This document shows positions 18,192 through 30,300 of a stretch of 64,000 nucleotides of DNA, one piece after another. Source of the stretch: Escherichia phage AnnaHegner_Bas87; sequence record PQ850594.1. One strand, given 5' to 3'. Numbering within the stretch: the stretch's first letter is position 1; each line of letters begins with the position of its first letter. The position numbers and the translations under genes are program-made. The notes below the pieces were generated by a model that saw only the letters and a list, made by a program, of their open reading frames with translations, was not told where the DNA came from and made no database searches.

Positions 18192-19172
18192 TTGGAGGTA
18201 CTTATGGGTGCTGGAGGTTTTCGAAAGAATACTGGTAGAAACAACACCACACTTCCGTACAATGTTGGTTTTCTAAACAATGTGCAGGATACAGAAACTT
18301 ACAACGTTGCCGTCTATGATGAACTACAAAAAGTTAGTACAGCAACTAATCAGATGTTTCAAGCTATTGATGAAATACATGAAGAAATTGATGTTAGGAT
18401 TAAAGCTCTTAATGCAATGAATCTTCAATTTGATGAACTTGAAAACAGAATTACTACAGAGATCGAAACAGCTATTGCTGATATTCAAACACAGATGGGC
18501 AATCTGTCCACTGAAGATATTTGGGATAATTCAGTACAACCGCCAGTTAAGCTAGAAAGTTCTATGGCAGGGTTTAAAACTTCTATAGAAGGTAATGAGG
18601 TTAAGATACAATCTGTTGAGGGAATCGTAAACCAGCAGGGAGAGGAAATTGGCTTAGTTCAAACAGAGATCTCCAACATTAACAGCAGTCTATCTTCTTA
18701 TATGAAGCTATCTGACTACGAAGCTACGTGGGGAATTAACTCAAATGTCAACGGTAGGTATGCTGGTGTCAAACTAACTAACAACGGCACGAATAGTCAG
18801 TTCCAAGTTACAGCTGATAAGTTTGTTGTAGGTGATGGTAACTCGGGTAATACACCTTTTGTATTTGAAGGAGGTCGAGCTAAGATAGAGTTTGCTGATA
18901 TTAAGAACGTCAATATCACAACTGCTCAAATTGCTAATGCTCGTATTCAGTTTGCTCAAATAGATAACGTGTGGATTACTGATGGTCAGATTGCCAATCT
19001 TACAGCTAACAAGATCACTGCTGGCTCTATGAGTGGTTCAAACTGGAGACTTACTGTTGGTGGGGATTTTGTGATGGGTGGCACAGGTGGGGCACAGCTC
19101 TGGATGAATGGTAATAGAATTGATTTCTATGATGGGAGCGGTGCACTGAGAATCAGAATAGGGAGTTGGTAA
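18192..19172 (+). CDS. tail fiber-like protein (coiled-coil N-term, beta-rich C-term)
   Basis: 326-aa ORF; likely true start ATG at 18204 after GGAGGT. Confidence 0.4.
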   Translation: MEVLMGAGGFRKNTGRNNTTLPYNVGFLNNVQDTETYNVAVYDELQKVSTATNQMFQAIDEIHEEIDVRIKALNAMNLQFDELENRITTEIETAIADIQTQMGNLSTEDIWDNSVQPPVKLESSMAGFKTSIEGNEVKIQSVEGIVNQQGEEIGLVQTEISNINSSLSSYMKLSDYEATWGINSNVNGRYAGVKLTNNGTNSQFQVTADKFVVGDGNSGNTPFVFEGGRAKIEFADIKNVNITTAQIANARIQFAQIDNVWITDGQIANLTANKITAGSMSGSNWRLTVGGDFVMGGTGGAQLWMNGNRIDFYDGSGALRIRIGSW

Positions 19173-19173
19173 T

Positions 19174-20205
19174 ATGGCTTATGGAATATGGTGTCAACCT
19201 GTAGGACCGGGACCAGCTTCCCCAGCTCCTCTCTTTATTGATAGCGGAAGCACTTTTCCTCAAATAAAAAATTCAATAAGTGGGAGTTTCAACTTTAACG
19301 GGGCTGGTAGATCTTTTCCTATTAGTGGGTGGGATGGGAGTGGTCAAATAGTGATTGTACCAACAGGCTCTCTTTGTTGGCAATGGGAGGTTCCTCCTAA
19401 TTTAGTTCCTGATGTATATTGTGTCAACAATATCTATGTAGAGAATAACACATCATTCAGGGTTACATTAAACCAAAACCCGGGAAGCAACCCTTTGTTT
19501 GACTGTGGTTTCAATGTATATCAAATCTACCCAAGAGCTGATAGGAACTATGGAATAACCTTCTCTAATACAGCTGATTATTTCTCTATCTCAGATGCTG
19601 GGATTGTGGGTCAATGCATCTGGGCTTGGCAAGGAACTATAAACAACGCTCTACAGATACCTGATATTGGTGGTTTCTATATGCCTAATGCTGTAGTTTT
19701 TGCTAACTGGTCTGATGGTGGTGTTGGTTTATCTTATACATCAGGAGATAGGGTGATTCGAGTTTATCAAAACAGGTCTTATAACAATGGCAACACTAAT
19801 GAAGGTGGTTCTGTGTTTGCTAGGGTTGCTGTATTTTGTAATGGTGCTGGGGTTCCTGAACACAACGGCGGTTTAAATATATACTCTCCCGGAACTACTC
19901 AGTGCGTATTCTCTACTTATAGGTCTCCTTTTACAGTAGACACTTTCGTAGGCTCAGCAGGTGGAAATACTGGCTTAGCTTATCCTATGATTCCTCTGTC
20001 TTCTGGAGTTGGAGCTATCAGAGGAAGTGGGAGTGGTTGGTATTATCAACAAATGCGTTCTCATACCATGTCAGGGTCTTCAATAGGAACTGGATATGGT
20101 AGATATATGTTCCAATGGTCTAACAGTTATGACTTAGGTTCTAATGCTGCTGTTAATATCTCCATCCCTGTAATCAACGCTGCTAAGATTTTTGCAGGTT
20201 TATGA
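19174..20205 (+). CDS. hypothetical virion protein
   Basis: 343-aa ORF abutting previous gene. Confidence 0.4.
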   Translation: MAYGIWCQPVGPGPASPAPLFIDSGSTFPQIKNSISGSFNFNGAGRSFPISGWDGSGQIVIVPTGSLCWQWEVPPNLVPDVYCVNNIYVENNTSFRVTLNQNPGSNPLFDCGFNVYQIYPRADRNYGITFSNTADYFSISDAGIVGQCIWAWQGTINNALQIPDIGGFYMPNAVVFANWSDGGVGLSYTSGDRVIRVYQNRSYNNGNTNEGGSVFARVAVFCNGAGVPEHNGGLNIYSPGTTQCVFSTYRSPFTVDTFVGSAGGNTGLAYPMIPLSSGVGAIRGSGSGWYYQQMRSHTMSGSSIGTGYGRYMFQWSNSYDLGSNAAVNISIPVINAAKIFAGL

Positions 20206-20217
20206 TAAGGAGTTTTT

Positions 20218-21015
20218 ATGACAAAAATAATGGGAGTGTCAGAGCTTGACCCTTTGGTCCAACAAGCTTCTAAGAAATATGGCATTCCTGCTGCTCTTAT
20301 ACATGCAGTGATTCAGAGAGAGTCTAATGGAAGACCTTCTGTTGAATCTGGTACAGGACCAGTAGGTTTAATGCAAATCAGTAAGGGGTTGGCTAAAGAT
20401 TATGGATATAAACTTGAAGATAGGTTAGACCCTGCAAAGAATATTGACATGGGTGCTAGATATTTAAGAGATAACCTGAAAGCTTTTGATGGTGATGTGA
20501 GGAAGGCTTTGGTGGGGTATTCAGAAGGAACTGGTGGTGCTAAGCAAATGTTTGCTGGTAAGAGAGGGTTTACACCTCAAGCTTTAGATTCAATGAATAA
20601 TAAGCTGTTCCTACCATTCTTTGATAAGAACACAGCAGCGGCACAAGTGGCTAATCCTGTAGGTGCTTTGAAAGCAGTTCAGCCTGTGGACCAGTTTGAT
20701 TCTAATACGCTGACTAGAGAAGGTGCTGCAAACGCTCCTACTCAAGCAGAGATAGCTGCAAGCAAGGCTGGAGCTTTAGGTGGTCGTCCTGTAGAGTTTT
20801 ACTCTGATGAACAATCTACTGGGGAAAATCAAAAACCTCAACAGAACTTTGGAAATGCTGTATTGGCAGCTGCTTCTATGCTTGCAGGAAAACAGCCTAA
20901 CTCTCAAACCGTACAGAGAGCACATGCCCCTACTCAAGCAGGTTCTCGATACAGTCCACAAACACAAGCCGTGCTGAGACGTTTGTCTAGCATAGGTACT
21001 GATATTTACAGATAA
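20218..21015 (+). CDS. lytic transglycosylase (SLT domain) virion protein
   Basis: ...IQRESNGRPSVESGTGPVGLMQIS... matches SLT catalytic Glu region. Confidence 0.65.
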   Translation: MTKIMGVSELDPLVQQASKKYGIPAALIHAVIQRESNGRPSVESGTGPVGLMQISKGLAKDYGYKLEDRLDPAKNIDMGARYLRDNLKAFDGDVRKALVGYSEGTGGAKQMFAGKRGFTPQALDSMNNKLFLPFFDKNTAAAQVANPVGALKAVQPVDQFDSNTLTREGAANAPTQAEIAASKAGALGGRPVEFYSDEQSTGENQKPQQNFGNAVLAAASMLAGKQPNSQTVQRAHAPTQAGSRYSPQTQAVLRRLSSIGTDIYR

Positions 21016-21024
21016 GGAGGACGT

Positions 21025-22077
21025 ATGTCTCTTTTCGGTTCTGCTCCTAAATCTAAGACTACGGTAGCTCCGTCTTCTCAGGTTGATGCTCTTCTGAAAC
21101 AGATTGTAGCAAATGCTCAGGCTATGAATCAAAACGATCAAGGTTTTATTAATCGTAACATAGCAGGTTTTAATGAAAATCAAACAGCAGCTCTTTCTAA
21201 TTTAGCAAATTCTAACACACTCAACCAACTCAGTAAGATGTACACCCCTAGAACTCAACAAGGGTTGGACCAGATGAATGAGTTGGCTCAGAAATATCAA
21301 AACCTAGTTAATAAAGGTGGTATCACTGCTCAGGATGTTAATAATTTTAGCTCTGGATTGAATAGCTCTGCTTTAGCTAAGTCTACAGGTAAAGCTGCTG
21401 CTAATGTATCTCTTGGTAATGGTTCTGATTCAGGTTCTCTTAGACGTGCTGCTGCTCAAGGTGCTGCTCTCTCTTCAGCGAATACAAACCTTTCTCGTTC
21501 TATTCAAGGTAAAAACATGGGTGTTAGCAATCTTATGAATAACAACTCCTATCAGCAAGGTTTGCTCAATGCTCAATCGGGTCTAGCAAATCAGAATCTG
21601 AATCTAGGAGCTGCTGGGGTACAAGCTGGTCAACAGGCAATACAGAATCAGCTCACTGCTGGGAATCTTCAACAACAGCAAGATCAACTCCAAGCTAACA
21701 ACAATTGGGAGAATGCTATTGGCAATCAGCAGTATGGTTGGAATCAGCTTAACAACCAGCTTAATGTATTAAACTCAGTAAGCCCAATGGCTGGGTACAC
21801 CATTACTAACAAAGGTGCTGCCCCTAATGTTTCACAACAAATCCTTGGTGCTGGGGTTACTGGTCTTGGTATTGCTGGACGTCTAGGTGCTTTTACCCCT
21901 AATCAGCAAACTACTAATGCTTGGAACTCATACAATGCTTCTGGAGGTCAAGCTGGGATGGCTGGTCCTATGATTGGTGGCTCAAACCTGTCTCAACAGA
22001 ATGGTCAGAGCAACTGGTTATCTACCGCAGGAAGTAATATCTTAGGTGGTGTTCTAGGAGCCTTTGGAGCAAATTAA
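21025..22077 (+). CDS. Q/N/G-rich low-complexity virion protein
   Basis: 350-aa ORF; N-terminus MSLFGSAPKSKTT; poly-Q/N segments. Confidence 0.5.
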   Translation: MSLFGSAPKSKTTVAPSSQVDALLKQIVANAQAMNQNDQGFINRNIAGFNENQTAALSNLANSNTLNQLSKMYTPRTQQGLDQMNELAQKYQNLVNKGGITAQDVNNFSSGLNSSALAKSTGKAAANVSLGNGSDSGSLRRAAAQGAALSSANTNLSRSIQGKNMGVSNLMNNNSYQQGLLNAQSGLANQNLNLGAAGVQAGQQAIQNQLTAGNLQQQQDQLQANNNWENAIGNQQYGWNQLNNQLNVLNSVSPMAGYTITNKGAAPNVSQQILGAGVTGLGIAGRLGAFTPNQQTTNAWNSYNASGGQAGMAGPMIGGSNLSQQNGQSNWLSTAGSNILGGVLGAFGAN

Positions 22078-22086
22078 GGAGGAGCT

Positions 22087-23055
22087 ATGGCTTTATTTGG
22101 TAGTGGGAGTAGCAAGACTACTTCTAAAATGACAAGACCTGACTACATTCAGTCCTATATTGATCAGTTGGTCAATCAGGTTAATAACACTAGTTCAGGC
22201 GATTATGTGTATCGAGAAAATGTTGGACTTAATCAAAACCAGCAAGAAGCTCTGAACAATCTATCACAATCTGGTGCATTAGGTGCACTTTCTTCTCAGT
22301 ATATGGATGCTGCTCAATCTGGTTTAGGTTATCTAGATAATGCATACTCTGGATATAACAACCTGTCTAACTCTGGTCAAATCACTGGGGAACAGATTGG
22401 TGCTCTTGCAGGCCAGCTCTATGACGACGAGGCTGTGCAAGCAGCTATTGCAGCGAATAATGAACAAACCCAACAGAGTTTGGCTAGGAATGCACTTCCT
22501 CAAATCTCTCAGCAGTTTGCTGGTCAGCAAGGTTCTGGTGCACGTATGGCTAAATCTTTTGCTCAGGGTGATGCTCTGAACCAGATGCAGAACACAGCAA
22601 CTAATATTACTAACAGTGCTTATGACTCCGCTCTAACTCAAGCACAGAACATTCTTTCTGGTAATAGACAAACACAAGCATCTGCTTTGGGTGGTTTATC
22701 TAACATTGGCTCCAATCTTGCTAATCTAGGAAACCAAGCTGGTCAGTTATCACAACAGCAAATGATGAATCAGTGGAATGCAGGACTGCAACAGCAGCAA
22801 CAACAGCAGTCTGATTTGAACAATGCTTATGAGAATGCTCAGAATGCCGCTAATTGGGGTTGGCAGGATATTAACAATCAACTAGGTGCTGCCGGGGTTC
22901 TTAATGGAGCTTTAGGGACAACCACAACTACTAAAACATCTGGTGGTAGTGGAGGCTTCCTAGGTGGTGCTGCTAGCGGTGCTGCTGCTGGCTCAGCTTT
23001 TGGCCCTTGGGGTGCTTTAGCTGGCGGTGTTATCGGTGGCTTAGCTAGCTCTTAA
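22087..23055 (+). CDS. Q/N/G-rich low-complexity virion protein (paralog of 21025-22077)
   Basis: 322-aa ORF; N-terminus MALFGSGSSKTTSK; similar composition and motifs. Confidence 0.5.
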   Translation: MALFGSGSSKTTSKMTRPDYIQSYIDQLVNQVNNTSSGDYVYRENVGLNQNQQEALNNLSQSGALGALSSQYMDAAQSGLGYLDNAYSGYNNLSNSGQITGEQIGALAGQLYDDEAVQAAIAANNEQTQQSLARNALPQISQQFAGQQGSGARMAKSFAQGDALNQMQNTATNITNSAYDSALTQAQNILSGNRQTQASALGGLSNIGSNLANLGNQAGQLSQQQMMNQWNAGLQQQQQQQSDLNNAYENAQNAANWGWQDINNQLGAAGVLNGALGTTTTTKTSGGSGGFLGGAASGAAAGSAFGPWGALAGGVIGGLASS

Positions 23056-23069
23056 TTAGGAGAATAATT

Positions 23070-24737
23070 ATGCAACAAACTTCTTATGCGTATCTTCGCA
23101 GTCAAGACCCAAGAAATCAGATTTATGGTGTTAAACAAGGGGCCGCTTCGGCCTCTCCATACATGGCAAGACCTGCTTATCCAGCTGCTGATGTTTCTAT
23201 GTATAACCGGAGACCTCCTGCCTCTCCTGTAGGTTTATCCTCTCTTGTTGCTACTACTCAAGAAGACCAAGAAGCTATGTTAAATCCGGGATTTAGGCAG
23301 CGCCTTATGGAAGCAGAGAATCAAGGGACTCCTACAAGCCTTCAGGGTATTGATATTGGCGAACCAGCTCCTGCTATGAATAACCCAGATCTATCCTCTG
23401 ATGAGGGTCTACAAGCTGCTGGGTTGATGCCTAGTGACCCACTTCCTGTTACTCCTCCTCGTAAACCTCTGGAAGAAACAGATAAAGAGTTCTCTCCAGT
23501 TCAGGTGGAACAGGCTCAGAATGTTATTAACACTTTAGCTAATAGTAATCCAGCTCCTGAAGGTATGGCTGGTGCAACTCGTGCTAAAGACCAAGAACGT
23601 ATTAATAATGATATTATGGAAGTAGCTAAAGCTAAAGATCCAGCACAAGCTTGGAATGAGCTTCAGAAGCAACCGTTCTACCAGAAGTCTAGTTTCTATA
23701 CTGGCTTAATGGGTGTTGGTCTTTCTATCATGTCAGGTAAATCCCCTATTGAAGCTTTCCAGATTGGTTCTGGCTTAGCTGCTCAGGATGAAACTAAACA
23801 ACAACTAGAAGCCAACCGTGATGCTCTGTTAGAACAAGGCTATTCTCAAGATTCAGTTGCTGCTGCAATTGCTTCGGGAGATCCCTCCCTTCTCAAAATG
23901 CGTCAGATTAGTCCTCAGGAGAAGATGGCTCTTGCTGCTCAGGATGAAGAACGTGCTAATCGTGAGTGGGATAGACGTCAACAGATTCAAGAGAATTCGA
24001 TGCGGGAACGTGCTGCTGAAACTCGTCGTGCTGCTGAAGAACGTGCTAATGCTCAGTTCGAGAAACAGAAAGAACTTATTGGATATCGTGATCAAGTTAA
24101 AGCAGAGCGTGCAGAGAAGGCTGCTCAGAGCTTTACTTTCAACCCTAAAGAAGTTCGTCTGGCTCAGAACACAGCAGAAGGTACAGTTGCTAAGCAGTGG
24201 GCAGAGAAAGCAGGTCTGTTCAACCAGTCTCATAAGGACTTGGATTTAGCAGACAAAGCTGTTAAGGATAAGGATTACCAAACTGCTCGTTCTGCTTACA
24301 TGCAGGCTATTATGAACTCCGCAAGGGCAGAAATTGGTGCTAACCGTTCTCTCCAAGCTGATGACTTGGCTCACTTTGCAGAAGACCCGTCAATCTTCGT
24401 TAAGGTTGGTAATACTTGGTCCCTTAAAGCAGGCTATCGTCCTTCTGATGCTGCTCTGTCATATGCTCGTAAGCAGGCAACTGTTGGTGCTACTTCCGCT
24501 GAGAAAGGTGTGAAGGATGCTAAGAAAGCAACAATTGAGGCATATATCGGTTCTGGTATGGATAAGAAAAGAGCTACAGCTCTTGTCAACCGTGCTATCC
24601 CATCTGCTGGTTTCTATGACCCATTCGGTACGTTTGAGAGTGAAGCTGAAGCAGCTGTTGGTGGAGATACTACAAATCCTCGCTTAACAGGTGCTCTTTC
24701 TTCTTCAGCGGCAGATACGAGTTGGATGTTCCAGTAA
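23070..24737 (+). CDS. hypothetical internal virion protein
   Basis: 555-aa ORF with RBS in structural block. Confidence 0.45.
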   Translation: MQQTSYAYLRSQDPRNQIYGVKQGAASASPYMARPAYPAADVSMYNRRPPASPVGLSSLVATTQEDQEAMLNPGFRQRLMEAENQGTPTSLQGIDIGEPAPAMNNPDLSSDEGLQAAGLMPSDPLPVTPPRKPLEETDKEFSPVQVEQAQNVINTLANSNPAPEGMAGATRAKDQERINNDIMEVAKAKDPAQAWNELQKQPFYQKSSFYTGLMGVGLSIMSGKSPIEAFQIGSGLAAQDETKQQLEANRDALLEQGYSQDSVAAAIASGDPSLLKMRQISPQEKMALAAQDEERANREWDRRQQIQENSMRERAAETRRAAEERANAQFEKQKELIGYRDQVKAERAEKAAQSFTFNPKEVRLAQNTAEGTVAKQWAEKAGLFNQSHKDLDLADKAVKDKDYQTARSAYMQAIMNSARAEIGANRSLQADDLAHFAEDPSIFVKVGNTWSLKAGYRPSDAALSYARKQATVGATSAEKGVKDAKKATIEAYIGSGMDKKRATALVNRAIPSAGFYDPFGTFESEAEAAVGGDTTNPRLTGALSSSAADTSWMFQ

Positions 24738-24762
24738 TCTAAGACCTAAGTCCTATCTCTTA

Positions 24763-24771
24763 TAATGTATA
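24763..24771 (+). promoter_or_regulatory. phage promoter-like motif TAATGTATA
   Basis: exact 9-mer 37 nt upstream of ATG 24808; AAGGAG RBS between. Confidence 0.45.
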
Positions 24772-24807
24772 TAGGAGGTAGGACATTTTTATTTATAAGG
24801 AGACGTT

Positions 24808-27800
24808 ATGGCTAATTTAAAATCGTGGGAAGAAGCTTCCAAAGCTCCTGCGTATCTGAATGCCTCTCCAGAGCAACAGGCTCAAATGAGAGAACAATAC
24901 AAGGCAGCAGGGGGCACTATTCCTGAGACTCAACCACAAGAGCAACCACAACAAGAAGAACGAGGTGTTATTGGGGAGTTTGCTCAAGGTGTGTCTAACG
25001 CTCTTCAATCAGGTGGTGCTAACATTGCAGCTAGTGCTGCTAAAGGTTTAGGTGGGCTGGTAGAGATTGGTGAAAACCTAACTGGTTCGGAAACAAGCTA
25101 TGGTAAGCGCATTCAAGAGAACTCTAAGCAATTGCTGGAAGAACGCTTATCTAAGATAGAAGATGGTTTTGGTAAAACAGCTGGTCAGTATGCTGGTGTT
25201 GCTGCTGATATTGGTTTGACAGTTGCAAACCCTGCTGTTGCTGCTGCTGTTATCGCAGCTCGTGAAACAGGTCGTGCTTATGCTGATCAAACTCCTAAAG
25301 AAGATGAAGATAAGTCAATCTTAGATGCTGCTCTTGTTGGTGGTGCTAACTACGCTGCTCAGAAGATACTTCCGGGCATGACTGGTACAGCTTCTACTAC
25401 TCTAGGTCGTGTAGGACAAAGCGTAGCCTCTAACGCGGTTGCTGGTGCTAAGGGTGGTGCTATTGTTGGTGCTGCTGAAGCTCAGAACAAATATGGAGAT
25501 GATACTACTCTAGCTAATGTCTTAGAAGGGGCTATTGAAGAAGGTGCACTCGGTGCCGCTTATGGTGGGGCGATTGGTGGGGTTCATGGGTTAATAAGTC
25601 GTCCTAGTCCTCAAGTGTTTGATCGTACTCCTGAGCATGTTAAGACTGACATTGCTGCTGAAGATGAGGCTATTCGTAAAGCTGCTAACGCTGATGAACT
25701 TCGTGAAGCCTATGCTAAAGCTGAGAATGCTAATGCTGCCTCTGCTTTAAACCTTCTGGATGAAAATGGTTTCCGAATCACAGATGCAGTTGCTATGGAC
25801 TCTCCTGCTGTTCAACGTATATTAAATACAGATCAAAATCGTGCAGAGAAGGCTGCTACGGTTCAGAAAGATAGTTCTAACGTTCCCGGTCTTAATCCTT
25901 TAGCTTCTCCTAAGAAGACTCAAGGTAAAGCTTTTGCGGACAACGAGTACAACCAGAAACAAGCTGTGGCAATGAAAGATGCAATGGCTGACTACACTAA
26001 AGATAACACCAAAGCCCTTACTGATGTTCTAGACAACCTAGACCGAGAGTTAGTAGCTCTGAGAGCAAGTGGTGATTTTACTGGTAGTGCTATTGACATT
26101 AAAAACCGTACTCAAGCTGATCGTGATTTTATTGATGCTTATAAAACTTTTTACAGTGAAGCTAATCGTTTCAAAGCTCGTGATGGTGAAGACCTAAACA
26201 ACTTCATTGATAAAGCTACTCAGTTGCAGAAGCTCTCTGAAAATGTTTCTCCAGAAATGAAGAAGGCCATTGGTGGATTAAAGAAACTAAAAGGTATGCC
26301 TGAAGGTTTTAACCCTATCCAAGATGCTTTCACTCTGAATAATACAGCTAAGTTCATGAGTAACCAAGACCGTGGTTGGACCTCTCTGACTGATGACGGT
26401 TTTCGTGAAGCTCCGGCTCCTGTGTTAGTTAAGAATCCTCTCGGTGCAGCCAAGTATGTACTTAACCGCTTTACTTCCGATCGTGCTCGTGCTCAACGTG
26501 AGAAGCAACAGTCAGCTAATAGTGAAGCTATCCGCTCTTTGGCTAGGGCTGATTTAGAAGTACAACGAGCTAGAACTCAGGCTGAAGAAGCAAGAGCAAA
26601 AATGGAAGAAGAACCAACTACAGAAGATATCAAATTCCGTACTCAAAATGATGCACCTTCCGAACCGGTTCGTGAGGAGCCTTCTGCTACTACTGTGACG
26701 GAAGAAATTCCTTCCTCTCCAGCTCCAGCTGAAACACCTCTTACTGCGAGGGATTTGGTTGCTCAAAGACGTGCTCTCCAACAAGCAGAGCTTAGACGTC
26801 AAGAAGCTGAAGCTGCTCAGGCTCAAGAAAGTGCTACATCAGAACCTGAACCACAGCAAGAAGCTCTTACAGCTAGAGAATTAGTAGCTCAGCGTAGGGC
26901 TGTAGCAGAGGCTAAGAAACGTCAAGAGGCAGAGGAAGCAGAACGTGCTAAAGAAGCTCCTGAGGAGGCCGTAGAAGAGCCTAAAGAGAAACCTGAGCCA
27001 TTACCTGCTCGTGCTCCTAAAGCTCCTGAGAAGGCTCCTGAGCCTGTTAAACCATCACTCGGTGTAGAGCGTCTGGCTTCTATGTCAACTGCTGCCCGTC
27101 AGGCAACAAAAGATCGTGCTGACCGATTTGCTCGTTCTTTGTATTCGGCTGCTGCTAAAGCTAAAGCTACTGCGGAAAACTTCCTTTCTTATAAAGGAGA
27201 CCCTAAAGAGCTTATGCGTCGTATCCGTCAGGAAGACCAAGCAAACAACACACAGCGTCATGAAGAGATGGCTAGAAACCAACTAGCTTCACAGCAAGGC
27301 ATTGCTTCTGCTAAATCTCAACATGTTCGTGCTTCTTTTGCTGATTGGGTGAAAGAACGTGGGTTGCCTTCTGATATTGCTACTAAGGCTTTACGGGCTG
27401 AAGAGAAAGGTTTAGGTGGGAACGTCACAAGTCTAGATTCACTGAAGCGAAGAGCTGAGCGTTTATATCAGAAACAAAGAGATGATGAGTTTGACCGTCT
27501 CTATAGAGAGGCTCTGGAAGAGAATAAAGCTTTTGATAAGAGAGATGCTCCTAAACTGGTAGACCAGAAGAAAGAGCTTCAGGATGAAATTGGTGCGTTG
27601 CTTGATGCTGAACCGTTACGTCCTGCTCAGAAAGATGCTATGCGTAGGATTATGGAAGACTTCGTGGAGAGCAAGTTTAAATCTTCAGAGAAAGCTGGAA
27701 GGGTTGAGGCTTTGGAAGTTGGTCAGATGAAGGATGTGTGGGATGGGTTTATTAATACCTATAACCGAGAAGTTAACATGTTCAACAAGGCTAACAAGAA

Positions 27801-29253
27801 TTCTCAATACGAAGCAGCAGCTAAACACTTGCAAGCACGTCAAGAACGTCTTGAGACGCTCCGTAACAGAGCTAAGGCTCGCAGTGATGCTAAGGCAGCC
27901 ATGGAGGCTGAGAAGCAGTCCTTGGAGGCTATAGCGGCTCAGAAATCAGAGATAGAGAAGATGTTCAAAGAATTGCCTGAAAGTGTCAGAGAGGCTCAGG
28001 AAGGGCGTACTTTGAAACAGCTTGCTGCTCACCATGATAAGAACTCTCCAGTACCACCGGAGCGTTTCCGTAGTATTATTGAACGTATCCACAACGCTGA
28101 GAGTGATTACCTCGATCGCAAACGTCGTTTGACCGAAGCAGAGGAAGATGCTCGTGAAGCTAAGTGGAACAGGATGTATGAACAGGCTGAGGAAATGAAC
28201 CGTAGGTTTGATATCGATGCTAGAGTGAAGAGAGATAAAGCTCTAAAGGAAGCTCAAGAACGAGAGAATGACTTAATGGCAGTTCAACGTCAGCGTGATG
28301 ACATTCATAAGCGTTTAGTCAATACTCTGGAAGAGAAGGGAGTTTCTAGGGAAGATGCTGAAGCGTATGCTGGGTCTTACATGGATAATCGGTATGCTTT
28401 GTTAGAGAAACCAATGACTCCAGTGGAACACCAGAATGCTCGTGCTCGTATTGAATCTGACGTAGAGAAGTTTGTTAAGAAATACGAAACAGCTACTCCA
28501 ATCGAAAGAGAGATCGCTAAAGCAACTGGTGATGTAGATGGGAAACCTTCTGACTTAGATGCAGAAACATTAAAAGCTATCGAAGATGCTCGTAAAGTTG
28601 ATTCCGATTTTAAGAAACTCTTAGATGAAGAGAAGGAAATGGAGAAGATTCGTTCAGCTCTACCTGAAGATGAAAGATCTCAGGCGAACTCTGATATTCT
28701 GGAAAGTATCAAGAAACAGGAAGATGATTTTGCTAGCAAAGCAGAGAAAGCTTTTATTGAAGGGAAGGATTTGCAGGAGTTAGCGAGTGTTGCAGAAGTT
28801 CTAGATAGGGTTCATGGTGCAGACAAGGCTGGTAACAACCGTCGATTTGTACGTGCTCTACAGACTGCTGCCGAGAACAAGAAACGTTATGGGGATAATC
28901 CAGTGGCTTGGTTTAGTGCTGATGATTACTCTGCTATTGCGAAACTTGGTGCTGCTTCGGCAGGTGGTAACAAATCTCGAGCACTTGAGAAAATCTTTGG
29001 TTCTACAGCAGAACAAGCTAAAGGGAAACTTTTAGGGCGGGATGATGTAGCTAAGATTAGGCGTGTGATTGAAGCGAATCCTAATGTTAAGATTCCTTCT
29101 TACAAGACAACTACTCGACAAGAGTACATGCAGTTCTTGGAGAAGTATAATGACGAGGGAGAGTTGAAAGTCAAACGTGGTTCTCTGTCTGACAAGTTGG
29201 AGAGAGGTAAGCGTCAAGCCAAACTCCGTGTTAGAGTTCGAGCTAAAGAGTAA
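24808..29253 (+). CDS. giant internal virion/ejection protein
   Basis: 1481-aa Ala- and charge-rich ORF with long helical regions; last gene of structural module. Confidence 0.55.
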   Translation: MANLKSWEEASKAPAYLNASPEQQAQMREQYKAAGGTIPETQPQEQPQQEERGVIGEFAQGVSNALQSGGANIAASAAKGLGGLVEIGENLTGSETSYGKRIQENSKQLLEERLSKIEDGFGKTAGQYAGVAADIGLTVANPAVAAAVIAARETGRAYADQTPKEDEDKSILDAALVGGANYAAQKILPGMTGTASTTLGRVGQSVASNAVAGAKGGAIVGAAEAQNKYGDDTTLANVLEGAIEEGALGAAYGGAIGGVHGLISRPSPQVFDRTPEHVKTDIAAEDEAIRKAANADELREAYAKAENANAASALNLLDENGFRITDAVAMDSPAVQRILNTDQNRAEKAATVQKDSSNVPGLNPLASPKKTQGKAFADNEYNQKQAVAMKDAMADYTKDNTKALTDVLDNLDRELVALRASGDFTGSAIDIKNRTQADRDFIDAYKTFYSEANRFKARDGEDLNNFIDKATQLQKLSENVSPEMKKAIGGLKKLKGMPEGFNPIQDAFTLNNTAKFMSNQDRGWTSLTDDGFREAPAPVLVKNPLGAAKYVLNRFTSDRARAQREKQQSANSEAIRSLARADLEVQRARTQAEEARAKMEEEPTTEDIKFRTQNDAPSEPVREEPSATTVTEEIPSSPAPAETPLTARDLVAQRRALQQAELRRQEAEAAQAQESATSEPEPQQEALTARELVAQRRAVAEAKKRQEAEEAERAKEAPEEAVEEPKEKPEPLPARAPKAPEKAPEPVKPSLGVERLASMSTAARQATKDRADRFARSLYSAAAKAKATAENFLSYKGDPKELMRRIRQEDQANNTQRHEEMARNQLASQQGIASAKSQHVRASFADWVKERGLPSDIATKALRAEEKGLGGNVTSLDSLKRRAERLYQKQRDDEFDRLYREALEENKAFDKRDAPKLVDQKKELQDEIGALLDAEPLRPAQKDAMRRIMEDFVESKFKSSEKAGRVEALEVGQMKDVWDGFINTYNREVNMFNKANKNSQYEAAAKHLQARQERLETLRNRAKARSDAKAAMEAEKQSLEAIAAQKSEIEKMFKELPESVREAQEGRTLKQLAAHHDKNSPVPPERFRSIIERIHNAESDYLDRKRRLTEAEEDAREAKWNRMYEQAEEMNRRFDIDARVKRDKALKEAQERENDLMAVQRQRDDIHKRLVNTLEEKGVSREDAEAYAGSYMDNRYALLEKPMTPVEHQNARARIESDVEKFVKKYETATPIEREIAKATGDVDGKPSDLDAETLKAIEDARKVDSDFKKLLDEEKEMEKIRSALPEDERSQANSDILESIKKQEDDFASKAEKAFIEGKDLQELASVAEVLDRVHGADKAGNNRRFVRALQTAAENKKRYGDNPVAWFSADDYSAIAKLGAASAGGNKSRALEKIFGSTAEQAKGKLLGRDDVAKIRRVIEANPNVKIPSYKTTTRQEYMQFLEKYNDEGELKVKRGSLSDKLERGKRQAKLRVRVRAKE
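26740..26991 (+). repeat. tandem 126-bp (42-aa) repeat inside giant protein gene
   Basis: LTARDLVAQRRALQQAE... / LTARELVAQRRAVAEAK... Confidence 0.4.
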
Positions 29254-29300
29254 ACAAAAAAAGCCCCCAACCTGTAAAAAGGAAGGGGGCTTCTTTATTT
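29254..29300. terminator. bidirectional rho-independent terminator at convergent junction
   Basis: AAGCCCCC...GGGGGCTT hairpin flanked by A7 upstream and CTTTATTT downstream. Confidence 0.55.
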
Positions 29301-29358
29301 CTAGATGTTAGAATCCATCGAATTCATCACACATCCCAATTTTCTTCTTCGAAGTCAA

Positions 29359-29625
29359 TCATAAGACCTCCCAATCATCTGCAAATAAATCACCCTGAGA
29401 TGGAACCCATCCGGGTTGCATAATACCCTGAGCATTCTTTAAGTCTAAATGAGGGGCGATAGTGAATCGACCTGTGATGCCAGCTTTTTCATAATCAGAA
29501 CCCGGTCGAGCTTCTTCTACTTCATATCCACCTGCTTTGATGACGAACTGATTTGCACCATTCCAACCAGAACGAGCAATCTTCTTACCTTCTTTTACTT
29601 TAATAAGTGCTGAACTAAAATCCAT
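29359..29625 (-). CDS. DUF2829-like protein (Tad2-like anti-defense candidate)
   Basis: 88 aa; ...EGKKIARSGWNG... and C-terminal ...WVPSQGDLFADDWEVL match my recollection of DUF2829. Confidence 0.5.
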   Translation of the reverse strand: MDFSSALIKVKEGKKIARSGWNGANQFVIKAGGYEVEEARPGSDYEKAGITGRFTIAPHLDLKNAQGIMQPGWVPSQGDLFADDWEVL

Positions 29626-29633
29626 TTGTTCTC

Positions 29634-29936
29634 CTAGATTAAATCATAATACTTAATAATATCGGAGAGCTTAAACTCTCGAATGTCATTCTTGTCGTTG
29701 TCCCAAGCGGTCATTATCCAACAAGGTTTGCCCCCATTATGATAGCGGGAAGAAGCAACTGAGGTTCGTAAAGGAATAACGGAGCGGTCTGCAACTTCAC
29801 CTCTCCAATTACGATAGCTAAAGCGAAGAACTTGTTTCGTAGATACTTGATCATGTGTGTTTTCCTTGTTCATAGATTCAAAGACTTCTCTTTCTTCAGG
29901 AGTCTCTAGATTTTTTAAATTCACGTCTTGCATCAT
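29634..29936 (-). CDS. hypothetical protein
   Basis: 100-aa ORF. Confidence 0.4.
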   Translation of the reverse strand: MMQDVNLKNLETPEEREVFESMNKENTHDQVSTKQVLRFSYRNWRGEVADRSVIPLRTSVASSRYHNGGKPCWIMTAWDNDKNDIREFKLSDIIKYYDLI

Positions 29937-30300
29937 TCTCTTCCTTAGTTTTTATCTTATGGCAAGGCTCTTTGCATAAGACTTGAAAACCATCTTTCTC
30001 AACTAAAGCCCTCTCGATGATTTCATCCCAAGTAGCTTCATGGTCCACTGGAACAATAGGCTCTACATGGTCTACTGCTACGTCTTTAAGAGGAGAATCA
30101 TTACCACACATGGCGCATTTGTAATGCATTGCCAGTTTGCCAGTTTTAGGGTTGATTTTACGTTCTGTCTGAGCCTCTTTGAGAGAATCAAACATAGGTT
30201 TCCATTTCCTAGTCAGAGAACGAATCCCTGACTTAATGAAGGAGTTATAACGTGCTTCAGTCCACTGACCAGAGCATCTTGTCTTCTCAGCTTTCGCCAT
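29896..30300 (-). CDS. HNH endonuclease
   Basis: ...CAMCGNDSPLKDVAVDHVEPIVP... HNH motif. Confidence 0.6.
   Translation of the reverse strand: MAKAEKTRCSGQWTEARYNSFIKSGIRSLTRKWKPMFDSLKEAQTERKINPKTGKLAMHYKCAMCGNDSPLKDVAVDHVEPIVPVDHEATWDEIIERALVEKDGFQVLCKEPCHKIKTKEENDARREFKKSRDS

Follow-up and report, generated by a model that had tools for sequence, protein, structure and literature searches.

What are the two adjacent glutamine- and asparagine-rich proteins encoded at 21025-23055, and what might they do when the phage infects its host? The window analyzed here is the whole 64,000-nucleotide stretch of DNA. The two open reading frames of 350 and 322 amino acids picked out by a first-pass annotation are indeed present in it on the + strand, p1 at 21025..22077 and p2 at 22087..23055. 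p1 begins MSLFGSAPKSKTT and p2 begins MALFGSGSSKTTSK. The Gln/Asn-rich composition also noted by that annotation was borne out, with Gln plus Asn making up 27.1% of p1 and 24.6% of p2 vs 10.2% in the remaining long ORFs of the window. Charge is scarce, at 7.1% of residues in p1 and 8.1% in p2 vs approximately 24% in those ORFs, and neither protein contains any His or Cys. The QQQQQQQ run was located in p2 (residues 235-241, DNA 22789-22809). The underlying DNA is merely a 2.3-copy GCAACAACA micro-repeat with a 9-bp unit, and because of this low copy number we rejected a slippage-prone DNA repeat as the origin of the run. The entropy of 40-residue windows in the two proteins is 2.8-3.8 bits, and real repeats are absent.

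By its sequence the window comes from a phiEco32/SU10-like coliphage podovirus. Across positions 20000-25000 it is 99.5% identical to vB_EcoP_SU7. This phage is of the Suseptimavirus (SU7) lineage, and SU10 itself is a Kuravirus. SU10 gp21 and gp22 are also 350 and 322 aa long, and are syntenic orthologues of p1 and p2 from the same PHROG, with identities of 77.7% (p1 to gp21) and approximately 82% (p2 to gp22, the SU10 ‘DNA injection protein’). We found no substantive difference between p1/p2 and either SU10 gp21/gp22 or the phiEco32 ‘putative DNA injection protein’.

The neighbors named in the first-pass annotation were correct. Upstream lies an SLT lytic transglycosylase gene (20218..21015, +; PF01464 E 1.5e-24, phrog_12507), orthologous to the SU10 ejection protein gp20 listed in SU10 Supplementary Table 1. 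Downstream are genes for a 555-aa internal protein (23070..24737, +; phrog_12130) and a 1481-aa internal protein (24808..29253, +; phrog_14629), assigned by synteny and SU10 mass spectrometry as orthologues of the ejection proteins gp23 and gp24. The gene order SLT, p1, p2, ~555 aa, ~1480 aa and the gene sizes match SU10 gp20-gp24. All five genes follow the nozzle and needle genes on the + strand, as in a late structural operon, and the SU7 record has a ribosome-binding site ahead of each gene and a terminator only past the 1481-aa gene.

Mass spectrometry of SU10 virions detected gp21 with 53% and gp22 with 49% coverage (PMC4281155), and both proteins are again listed in the virion mass spectrometry of Supplementary Table 1 in a later study (PMC9509320). 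That study found genome-release intermediates of SU10 to be without gp20-24, and grouped gp21 and gp22 with the head-internal proteins (PMC9509320). The proposal that p1 and p2 are ejected internal proteins agrees with these orthologue data (presence in virions by mass spectrometry, absence from genome-release intermediates; PMC9509320, PMC4281155). By analogy with SU10, this role is supported and was already known.

The two proteins had been described as paralogs with similar N-termini, and the similarity far exceeds what shared composition would give. BLASTP with compositional adjustment aligned p1 and p2 over 270 collinear residues at 30% identity (E 3e-14). The Smith-Waterman score of 299 compares with 96 +/- 13 when whole sequences were shuffled (z = 16) and with 117 +/- 14 when 30-residue blocks were (z = 13), and hhalign of the two orthologue families gave a probability of 99.8% (E 9.3e-28, 286 columns). 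Both proteins match the same profile, phrog_4287 ‘DNA ejection protein’, p1 with residues 1-350 against profile positions 1-392 (E 3.2e-104) and p2 with residues 1-310 against 1-321 (E 3.9e-99). They share a conserved N-terminal motif, M-[GAS]-LFG followed by a Ser/Thr-rich stretch, located from the family alignments at 21025-21063 (+) in p1 and 22087..22128 (+) in p2. Among the 145 Met-starting family representatives, the second residue is G, A or S in 126, [LIMF]FG occurs within the first 12 residues in 50, and at least 5 S/T are found in residues 6-20 in 91.

Neither copy is a pseudogene: dN/dS is 0.10-0.20 for p1 and 0.08-0.14 for p2, indicating that both are under purifying selection. In every locus with a p2 orthologue, down to 42% identity, a p1-like gene lies directly upstream of the p2-like gene; the locus set includes one E. 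coli contig and viral contigs of 82-90 kb. The p1-like protein is more basic than its p2-like partner in all 8 of 8 pairs (net charge +7 vs -8 in the window), though the difference is slight where the pairs are most distant. The best account of p1 and p2 is an old tandem duplication of the gene for a single internal-virion protein, of the kind called ‘ejection’ or ‘pilot’ proteins. The family containing them is large, with 664 clusters at 50% identity. A tblastn search with p1 reached no further than approximately 98 close coliphages; the paralogue went undetected, probably through low-complexity filtering.

The label ‘prion-like low-complexity’ attached to the pair in the first-pass annotation is misleading. 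The composition is biased, yet long ordered helices are confidently predicted and purifying selection is evident. Using a 140-sequence alignment, AlphaFold2 (AF2) produced an all-helical model of p2 (pLDDT 80.8) in which residues 40-270 are predicted to form ordered helices (block pLDDT 80-97) rather than a disordered Q/N domain. Confidence came only with this alignment; a model built from 25 sequences was unusable (pLDDT 43.6). The model contains a predicted single long alpha-helix of 127 residues (residues 150-276, approximately 19 nm; 22534..22914, +; AF2 block pLDDT 80-97) that includes the Q7 run.

Structural searches of the PDB with the p2 model returned generic long helical hairpins only, and when the PDB was searched by sequence or profile the only matches were non-significant, composition-driven ones to coronavirus HR1 and designed helical repeats. 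The family profile did not match ejection-protein chains in the PDB, and neither T7 gp15 nor other solved tunnel proteins matched p1 or p2 in sequence or fold. No functional domain emerged when both proteins were scanned against Pfam and NCBIfam. Analysis of hydrophobic periodicity for heptads was uninformative.

The C-terminus of p2 carries a glycine-zipper tail, residues 286-322 (GGSGGFLGGAASGAAAGSAFGPWGALAGGVIGGLASS; 22942..23052, +). Within the last 40 residues are 9 GxxxG and 20 small-xxx-small pairs. Of the 48 invariant columns in the orthologue alignment, 19 fall within residues 287-317, so that conservation in p2 peaks in the tail, which argues that it is functionally central. In p1, a Gly-rich hydrophobic segment at residues 273-290 (ILGAGVTGLGIAGRLGAF; 21841..21894, +) corresponds in the alignment to the beginning of the p2 tail, coincides with the hydropathy maximum of the protein (1.29 at residue 273) and is conserved in 8 of 8 p1-like orthologues. 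Composition and hydropathy mark a second such segment at the p1 C-terminus, residues 331-350 (WLSTAGSNILGGVLGAFGAN; 22015..22074, +), an end that varies in sequence and length among p1-like orthologues. Hydropathy maxima of the p1 and p2 tails are 1.07-1.29 over 19 residues, lower than a classical transmembrane helix would have. The glycine-zipper Pfam models PF13441, PF13488 and PF05433 were not matched by p1 or p2 even at E <= 10; several relatives do match such models (best E 1.9e-5), with the listed scores below the curated cut-offs. The p2 tail most likely inserts into a host membrane.

We compared the families with known ejection proteins. With hhalign, the p2 orthologues matched the P22 gp7 family (probability 70.8%, E 3.8e-5), the match being confined to the C-terminal ~32 columns. 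The real score was 40.9 vs at most 21 for reversed and column-shuffled controls. None of 35 tail-only shuffles reached 40.9, but one scored 39.2, so tail composition accounts for part of the gp7 signal. Without the tails the similarity was not significant (23.4 vs a shuffle maximum of 21.2), and the p1 family against gp7 gave a probability of 0.7%. The Pfam model of P22 gp7, PF25688, matched neither p1 nor p2 even at E <= 10; three family members do match the gp7 profile and PF25688 through their tails (best E 5e-6, 26.9 bits vs a 28-bit cut-off), and a PWG-containing tail like that of gp7 occurs in 15 of 148 family representatives. HMMER searches against T7 gp13-16 and P22 gp14, gp7, gp20 and gp16 were negative, in part owing to a 50-bit bias correction that cancels the gp7 signal, and hhalign to P22 gp20 was also negative. 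The likeness of the p2 tail to the P22 gp7 tail is moderate and limited to the tail.

We propose that p1 and p2 are ejection proteins that act as the small membrane-pore part of the conduit through which the genome is delivered, a reading we regard as probable. Both would be packaged in the head and leave at genome release, as shown for the SU10 orthologues. Once the tail needle is lost, they would travel with the SLT transglycosylase, the 555-aa protein and the 1481-aa protein through the channel of portal and nozzle, then refold in the envelope. Each is pictured as a long hairpin of helices, one of them approximately 19 nm in length, that also has a Thr-rich linker and ends in an uncharged glycine-zipper tail; this tail would most likely insert into a host membrane. 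The pair would thus be the counterpart of the small membrane-pore ejection class (P22 gp7, T7 gp14), with the larger downstream proteins building the rest of the conduit. More speculatively, basic p1 and acidic p2 may co-assemble into a single hetero-oligomer.

A more far-reaching version, which we think quite doubtful, would place the pair in a large unrecognized membrane-piercing superfamily that includes P22 gp7 and has a fusion-machine-like build, the basic/acidic hetero-oligomer forming the first outer-membrane pore. Here the conserved N-terminal GLFG-type peptide, the long Q/N-rich coiled coil and the C-terminal glycine-zipper anchor would be the working parts, a self-cleaving S74 chaperone would trimerize the coiled coil in some lineages, and the duplication in phiEco32-like phages would have given an obligate hetero-oligomer.

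The conduit could also be served in another way, with p1 and p2 forming a periplasm-spanning tube of the gp15/gp20-like tunnel class and the Gly-rich tails acting as a mere anchor or subunit contact. The predicted 127-residue helix has periplasmic dimensions, both proteins are longer than those of the gp7/gp14 class, tail hydropathy is modest and the gp7 similarity stops at the tail, all of which fit a tube. Nevertheless, the downstream 555-aa protein better fits the tunnel class in size and position, no part of p2 is better conserved than the tail, and the solved tunnel proteins, T7 gp15 among them, resemble p1 and p2 in neither sequence nor fold, leaving this arrangement possible but unlikely. 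We consider it very unlikely that the two are head proteins that organize or lubricate the packaged DNA, or leftover assembly factors, expelled passively and with no part in the conduit. Cryo-EM showed no ordered head density for SU10 gp21 and gp22, nor were they resolved in the tail maps (PMC9509320), and such a role would suit the former observation, the polar, charge-poor composition and the lack of a detected functional domain. A charge of 7-8%, however, poorly suits DNA binding, the sequences are strongly conserved, the hydrophobic tail above all, the genes are always linked to those for the SLT and large internal proteins, and the podovirus internal proteins studied so far were needed for DNA delivery (PMC8954989).

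The first-pass annotation had offered a needle or plug as its second reading, by which p1 and p2 would be trimeric coiled-coil needle or plug components that close the nozzle and are expelled first. The Peptidase_S74 chaperone domain occurs on trimeric fibers (endosialidase and tail-fiber chaperones). We found this domain (PF13884; best E 1.5e-11) directly after the Gly-rich tail, at the C-terminus, in 18 of 140 family members, and in both Salmonella phage 7-11 and locus L006 the single-copy relative lies directly after the nozzle homologue, in the position of the SU10 needle gene. p1 and p2 themselves lack an S74 domain, and the weak profile likeness to trimeric coronavirus HR1 coiled coils (E 0.015) is not significant and reflects composition. 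Furthermore, the SU10 needle density was assigned to trimeric gp18 (PMC9509320), whose homologue in the window is at 18192-19172 (Phage_Tail_Tip match), and SU10 gp21 and gp22 are unseen in the tail maps and classed as head-internal. This second reading is not supported, and we rate a needle or plug as highly improbable.

How DNA of short-tailed phages passes two membranes is poorly understood beyond T7, P22 and N4, and the phiEco32/SU10 group has five ejection proteins without assigned structures or individual roles. The analysis leaves the identity of the two genes unchanged, a result that is real but ordinary and will not surprise specialists. What is new is the size of the family, the conserved glycine-zipper tail with its moderate likeness to that of gp7, and the S74 domain directly after the tail in single-copy relatives. 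The helical model, the tail as the likely membrane-active element and the possible gp7 link are leads for mutants and assays, as are the conserved basic/acidic pairing and the relatives whose tail would be exposed by S74 self-cleavage.

Among characterized systems, P22 gp7 (PF25688) shares several features with p1 and p2. This small internal protein is the product of the first gene in the block for ejection proteins and is placed alongside T7 gp14 in the ‘gp14-like’, outer-membrane ejection class; it is likewise Q/N/G/A-rich and charge-poor (17.9% Q+N, 10.5% charged); and its extreme C-terminus is an uncharged glycine zipper with a P-W-G-A core, gp7 ending STPWGAAIGGGIGLLGSLF where p2 has FGPWGALAGGVIGGLASS. 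It differs in being single-copy and 229 aa long, p1 and p2 being 50-75% longer than proteins of the gp7/gp14 class, and in having, according to a record note, an OpdA-cleaved N-terminal propeptide, of which none is evident in p1 or p2. The similarity is limited to approximately 35 tail residues, and no solved PDB chain for P22 gp7 was detectable by sequence.

T7 gp14 is helical and occupies the same synteny slot, a small protein followed by medium and large internal proteins, and the small-medium-large order here matches the gp14/gp15/gp16 pattern (PMC8954989, PMC11445570). It has no detectable sequence relation to p1 or p2 (hhalign probability 0.1%, negative HMM scores), and differs in having 20% charged residues and no glycine-zipper C-terminus. 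A further comparison is within the family itself, with Salmonella phage 7-11 gp020 and relatives in Cronobacter GAP52, Proteus Privateer and Aeromonas LAh phages. Proteins of the gp020 type are single-copy, encoded directly after the nozzle homologue and upstream of an SLT-like gene, and end in an additional Peptidase_S74 domain, its SDxxLK cleavage motif coming immediately after the tail. They have in common with p1 and p2 the N-terminal motif, the helical Q/N-rich body and the Gly-rich tail, and are likewise annotated as DNA ejection or injection proteins.

The two adjacent ORFs between the lytic transglycosylase (SLT) gene and the genes for the large internal proteins were confirmed on the + strand as p1 (21025-22077, 350 aa, N-terminus MSLFGSAPKSKTT) and p2 (22087-23055, 322 aa, N-terminus MALFGSGSSKTTSK). 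Over 20000-25000 the window shares 99.5% identity with Escherichia phage vB_EcoP_SU7 (Gordonclarkvirinae, Suseptimavirus) and 98.7% with Bas86, and this region is common to about 98 phiEco32/SU10-like coliphages. The syntenic genes of SU10 are gp20 (transglycosylase), gp21 (350 aa), gp22 (322 aa), gp23 and gp24, and p1 and p2 are 78-82% identical to their orthologues gp21 and gp22. Virion proteomics, which had been suggested as a check, is in effect already published for these orthologues: SU10 phage preparations contain gp21 (53% coverage) and gp22 (49% coverage) (PMC4281155), a cryo-EM study lists both among the virion proteins found by mass spectrometry, and genome-release intermediates in that study lack gp20-24, which it named ejection proteins (PMC9509320). 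The first-pass annotation was thus correct in its main inference, that p1 and p2 are ejected internal proteins. That identity is already established through the orthologues, and both genes are essentially identical to annotated, already known genes of published phages. What is new is modest: the size of the family, a confident helical model, a conserved tail with partial resemblance to P22 gp7, single-copy relatives bearing an S74 domain, and a conserved basic/acidic pairing.

The alternative that p1 and p2 are needle or plug components draws its only real support from these single-copy relatives. A genuine C-terminal Peptidase_S74 intramolecular-chaperone domain is present in 18 of 140 family members (best E 1.5e-11), with its SDxxLK motif coming straight after the Gly-rich tail, e.g. 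...GGVIGAFSDATLKD...; if these proteins self-cleave like other S74 proteins, the mature forms would end in a p2-like tail. S74 domains act on trimeric fibres, and their presence gives a hint that this family, too, could form trimers; it is unusual to find such a domain on an internal or ejection protein. The relatives occur in Salmonella phage 7-11, Cronobacter GAP52, Proteus Privateer and Aeromonas phages, where the gene lies after a nozzle homologue and before an SLT-like gene. In Salmonella phage 7-11 (gp020, L021:8971-10209) and in a second related locus (L006:10001-11272) it occupies the slot where SU10-like phages carry the needle gene. The SU10 assignments nevertheless argue against a needle or plug role in this phage, since the SU10 needle was assigned to gp18 (PMC9509320), gp21 and gp22 were classed as ejection proteins, and the gp18 homologue here is a separate gene (18192-19172, Phage_Tail_Tip).

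Both proteins are unusual in composition, with 27.1% (p1) and 24.6% (p2) Gln+Asn, where the window's remaining long ORFs have 10.2%, and 7-8% charged residues against approximately 24%; a composition count found neither His nor Cys in either protein. The Q7 run occupies p2 residues 235-241, and the DNA beneath it is a 9-bp micro-repeat of only 2.3 copies. Paralogy of p1 and p2, as first proposed, holds beyond this shared composition. BLASTP with compositional adjustment aligned 270 collinear residues (E 3e-14), the Smith-Waterman score of 299 exceeded whole-sequence shuffles by 16 SD and 30-residue block shuffles by 13 SD, and hhalign of the p1-like and p2-like orthologue alignments gave a probability of 99.8% over 286 columns (E 9.3e-28). 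Both proteins also gave full-length matches to phrog_4287, "DNA ejection protein". Pairwise dN/dS across four lineages was 0.10-0.20 in p1 and 0.08-0.14 in p2, close to that of the adjoining SLT gene, these values being approximate as dS is near saturation; neither gene is a pseudogene.

Homologues, also suggested as a check, were found in the approximately 98 coliphages and in a larger family: an exhaustive profile search recovered 664 clusters (50% identity) at E <= 1e-3, of which 136 pass the stricter E <= 1e-10. Family representatives keep an N-terminus of M-[G/A/S]-LFGG and, after it, a stretch rich in Ser/Thr (21025-21063 in p1, 22087-22128 in p2). Removal of Met would leave a GLFG-like peptide exposed, which would superficially resemble the start of the influenza HA2 fusion peptide. 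AlphaFold2 with a 25-sequence alignment gave no usable model (pLDDT 43.6); with 140 sequences the p2 model reached a mean pLDDT of 80.8, with 177 residues at or above 90. This model is all-helical, with helices at residues 19-34, 50-61, 63-95, 101-111 and 114-143 and a single unbroken helix from 150 to 276, while residues 278-322 are without structure in the monomer.

All loci with a p2 orthologue have a p1-like gene directly upstream; they include viral contigs of 82-90 kb and an E. coli contig where the p2 orthologue shares only 42% identity with p2 of the window. The p1-like protein is the more basic partner in 8/8 pairs (window, L003, L004, L008, L011-L014), with net charges of +7 versus -8 in the window and +10 versus -10 in L004; the gap narrows in the most distant pairs, and in the viral contigs of 82-90 kb it is only +1 versus -2 to -4.

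L004 is a kuravirus-type module at 204317-225285 of DAHCAP010000002.1 (389,554 bp; E. coli assembly GCA_023211535.1), a chromosome-sized E. coli contig. Its order is SU10-like major capsid protein, terminase, SU10-like portal, SLT, p1-like (334 aa) and p2-like (322 aa) genes, then genes for 498-aa and 1113-aa proteins. Phages of this type are supposedly strictly lytic, and the locus suggests a prophage-like or integrated relative, or an assembly chimera. A megablast search of 5,426 complete E. coli genomes found no match; similar p2-like proteins are also encoded by contigs of Enterobacter cloacae (317 kb) and E. coli (132 kb). Within the window, a gene for a 343-aa DUF6453 protein (19174-20205), annotated as "membrane protein" or moron, separates the SLT gene from the needle gene midway through the structural operon; gp19, its orthologue in SU10, was not among the proteins detected in virions (PMC9509320). 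Two small - strand ORFs (29359-29625 and 29634-29936) lie 3' of the 1481-aa gene in the same arrangement as in Bas86, whereas the SU7 record has one 300-bp gene there, so that this accessory region (29300-30000) may distinguish the window from SU7 despite their 99.5% identity at 20000-25000.

The SU10 orthologues have been shown to be packaged in the head and to leave it together with the genome. From sequence, model and synteny we propose that, after needle release, p1 and p2 would move through the nozzle and refold as elongated helical hairpins whose glycine-zipper tails would insert into a host membrane, forming the small membrane-active component of a conduit. The SLT would cut peptidoglycan, with the 555-aa and 1481-aa proteins completing the channel; more speculatively, the basic/acidic pairing may reflect co-assembly of p1 and p2. 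This scheme is weakened by the modest hydropathy of the tail and by the failure of p1 and p2 to match any glycine-zipper Pfam family, and the 19-nm helix would suit a periplasmic tube equally well.

The tail itself is the most conserved part of p2: residues 287-317 hold 19 of the 48 invariant columns of the orthologue alignment, and the segment GGFLGGAASGAAAGSAFGPWGALAGGVIGGLASS is uncharged with 9 GxxxG pairs. A similar composition and a C-terminus of GGGASGAIAGAGLAKLIGSSTPWGAAIGGGIGLLGSLF are found in P22 gp7, a small ejection protein placed, like T7 gp14, in the outer-membrane class (PMC8954989; PMC11445570), and many family representatives have intermediate tails, e.g. P0293, ending ...GSMFGPWGAAIGGGLGLLGGLF. 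Aligning p2 orthologues with gp7 by hhalign gave a probability of 70.8% (E 3.8e-5) in the tail only; the score of 40.9 compares with at most 21 for reversed and fully shuffled controls, and 0/35 tail-only shuffles reached it (top 39.2). The gp7 HMM and Pfam PF25688 match the tails of three family members, with a top score of 26.9 bits where the cut-off is 28. With tails removed, the similarity of p2 orthologues to gp7 was not significant; p1 and p2 gave no score whatever against PF25688, the p1 family gave no hhalign signal with gp7, and no relationship of the family to T7 gp14 or P22 gp20 was detected. Because the signal is confined to the tail and both the PF25688 score and a p1 signal are absent, the link to P22 gp7 is plausibly a shared C-terminal module rather than family membership.
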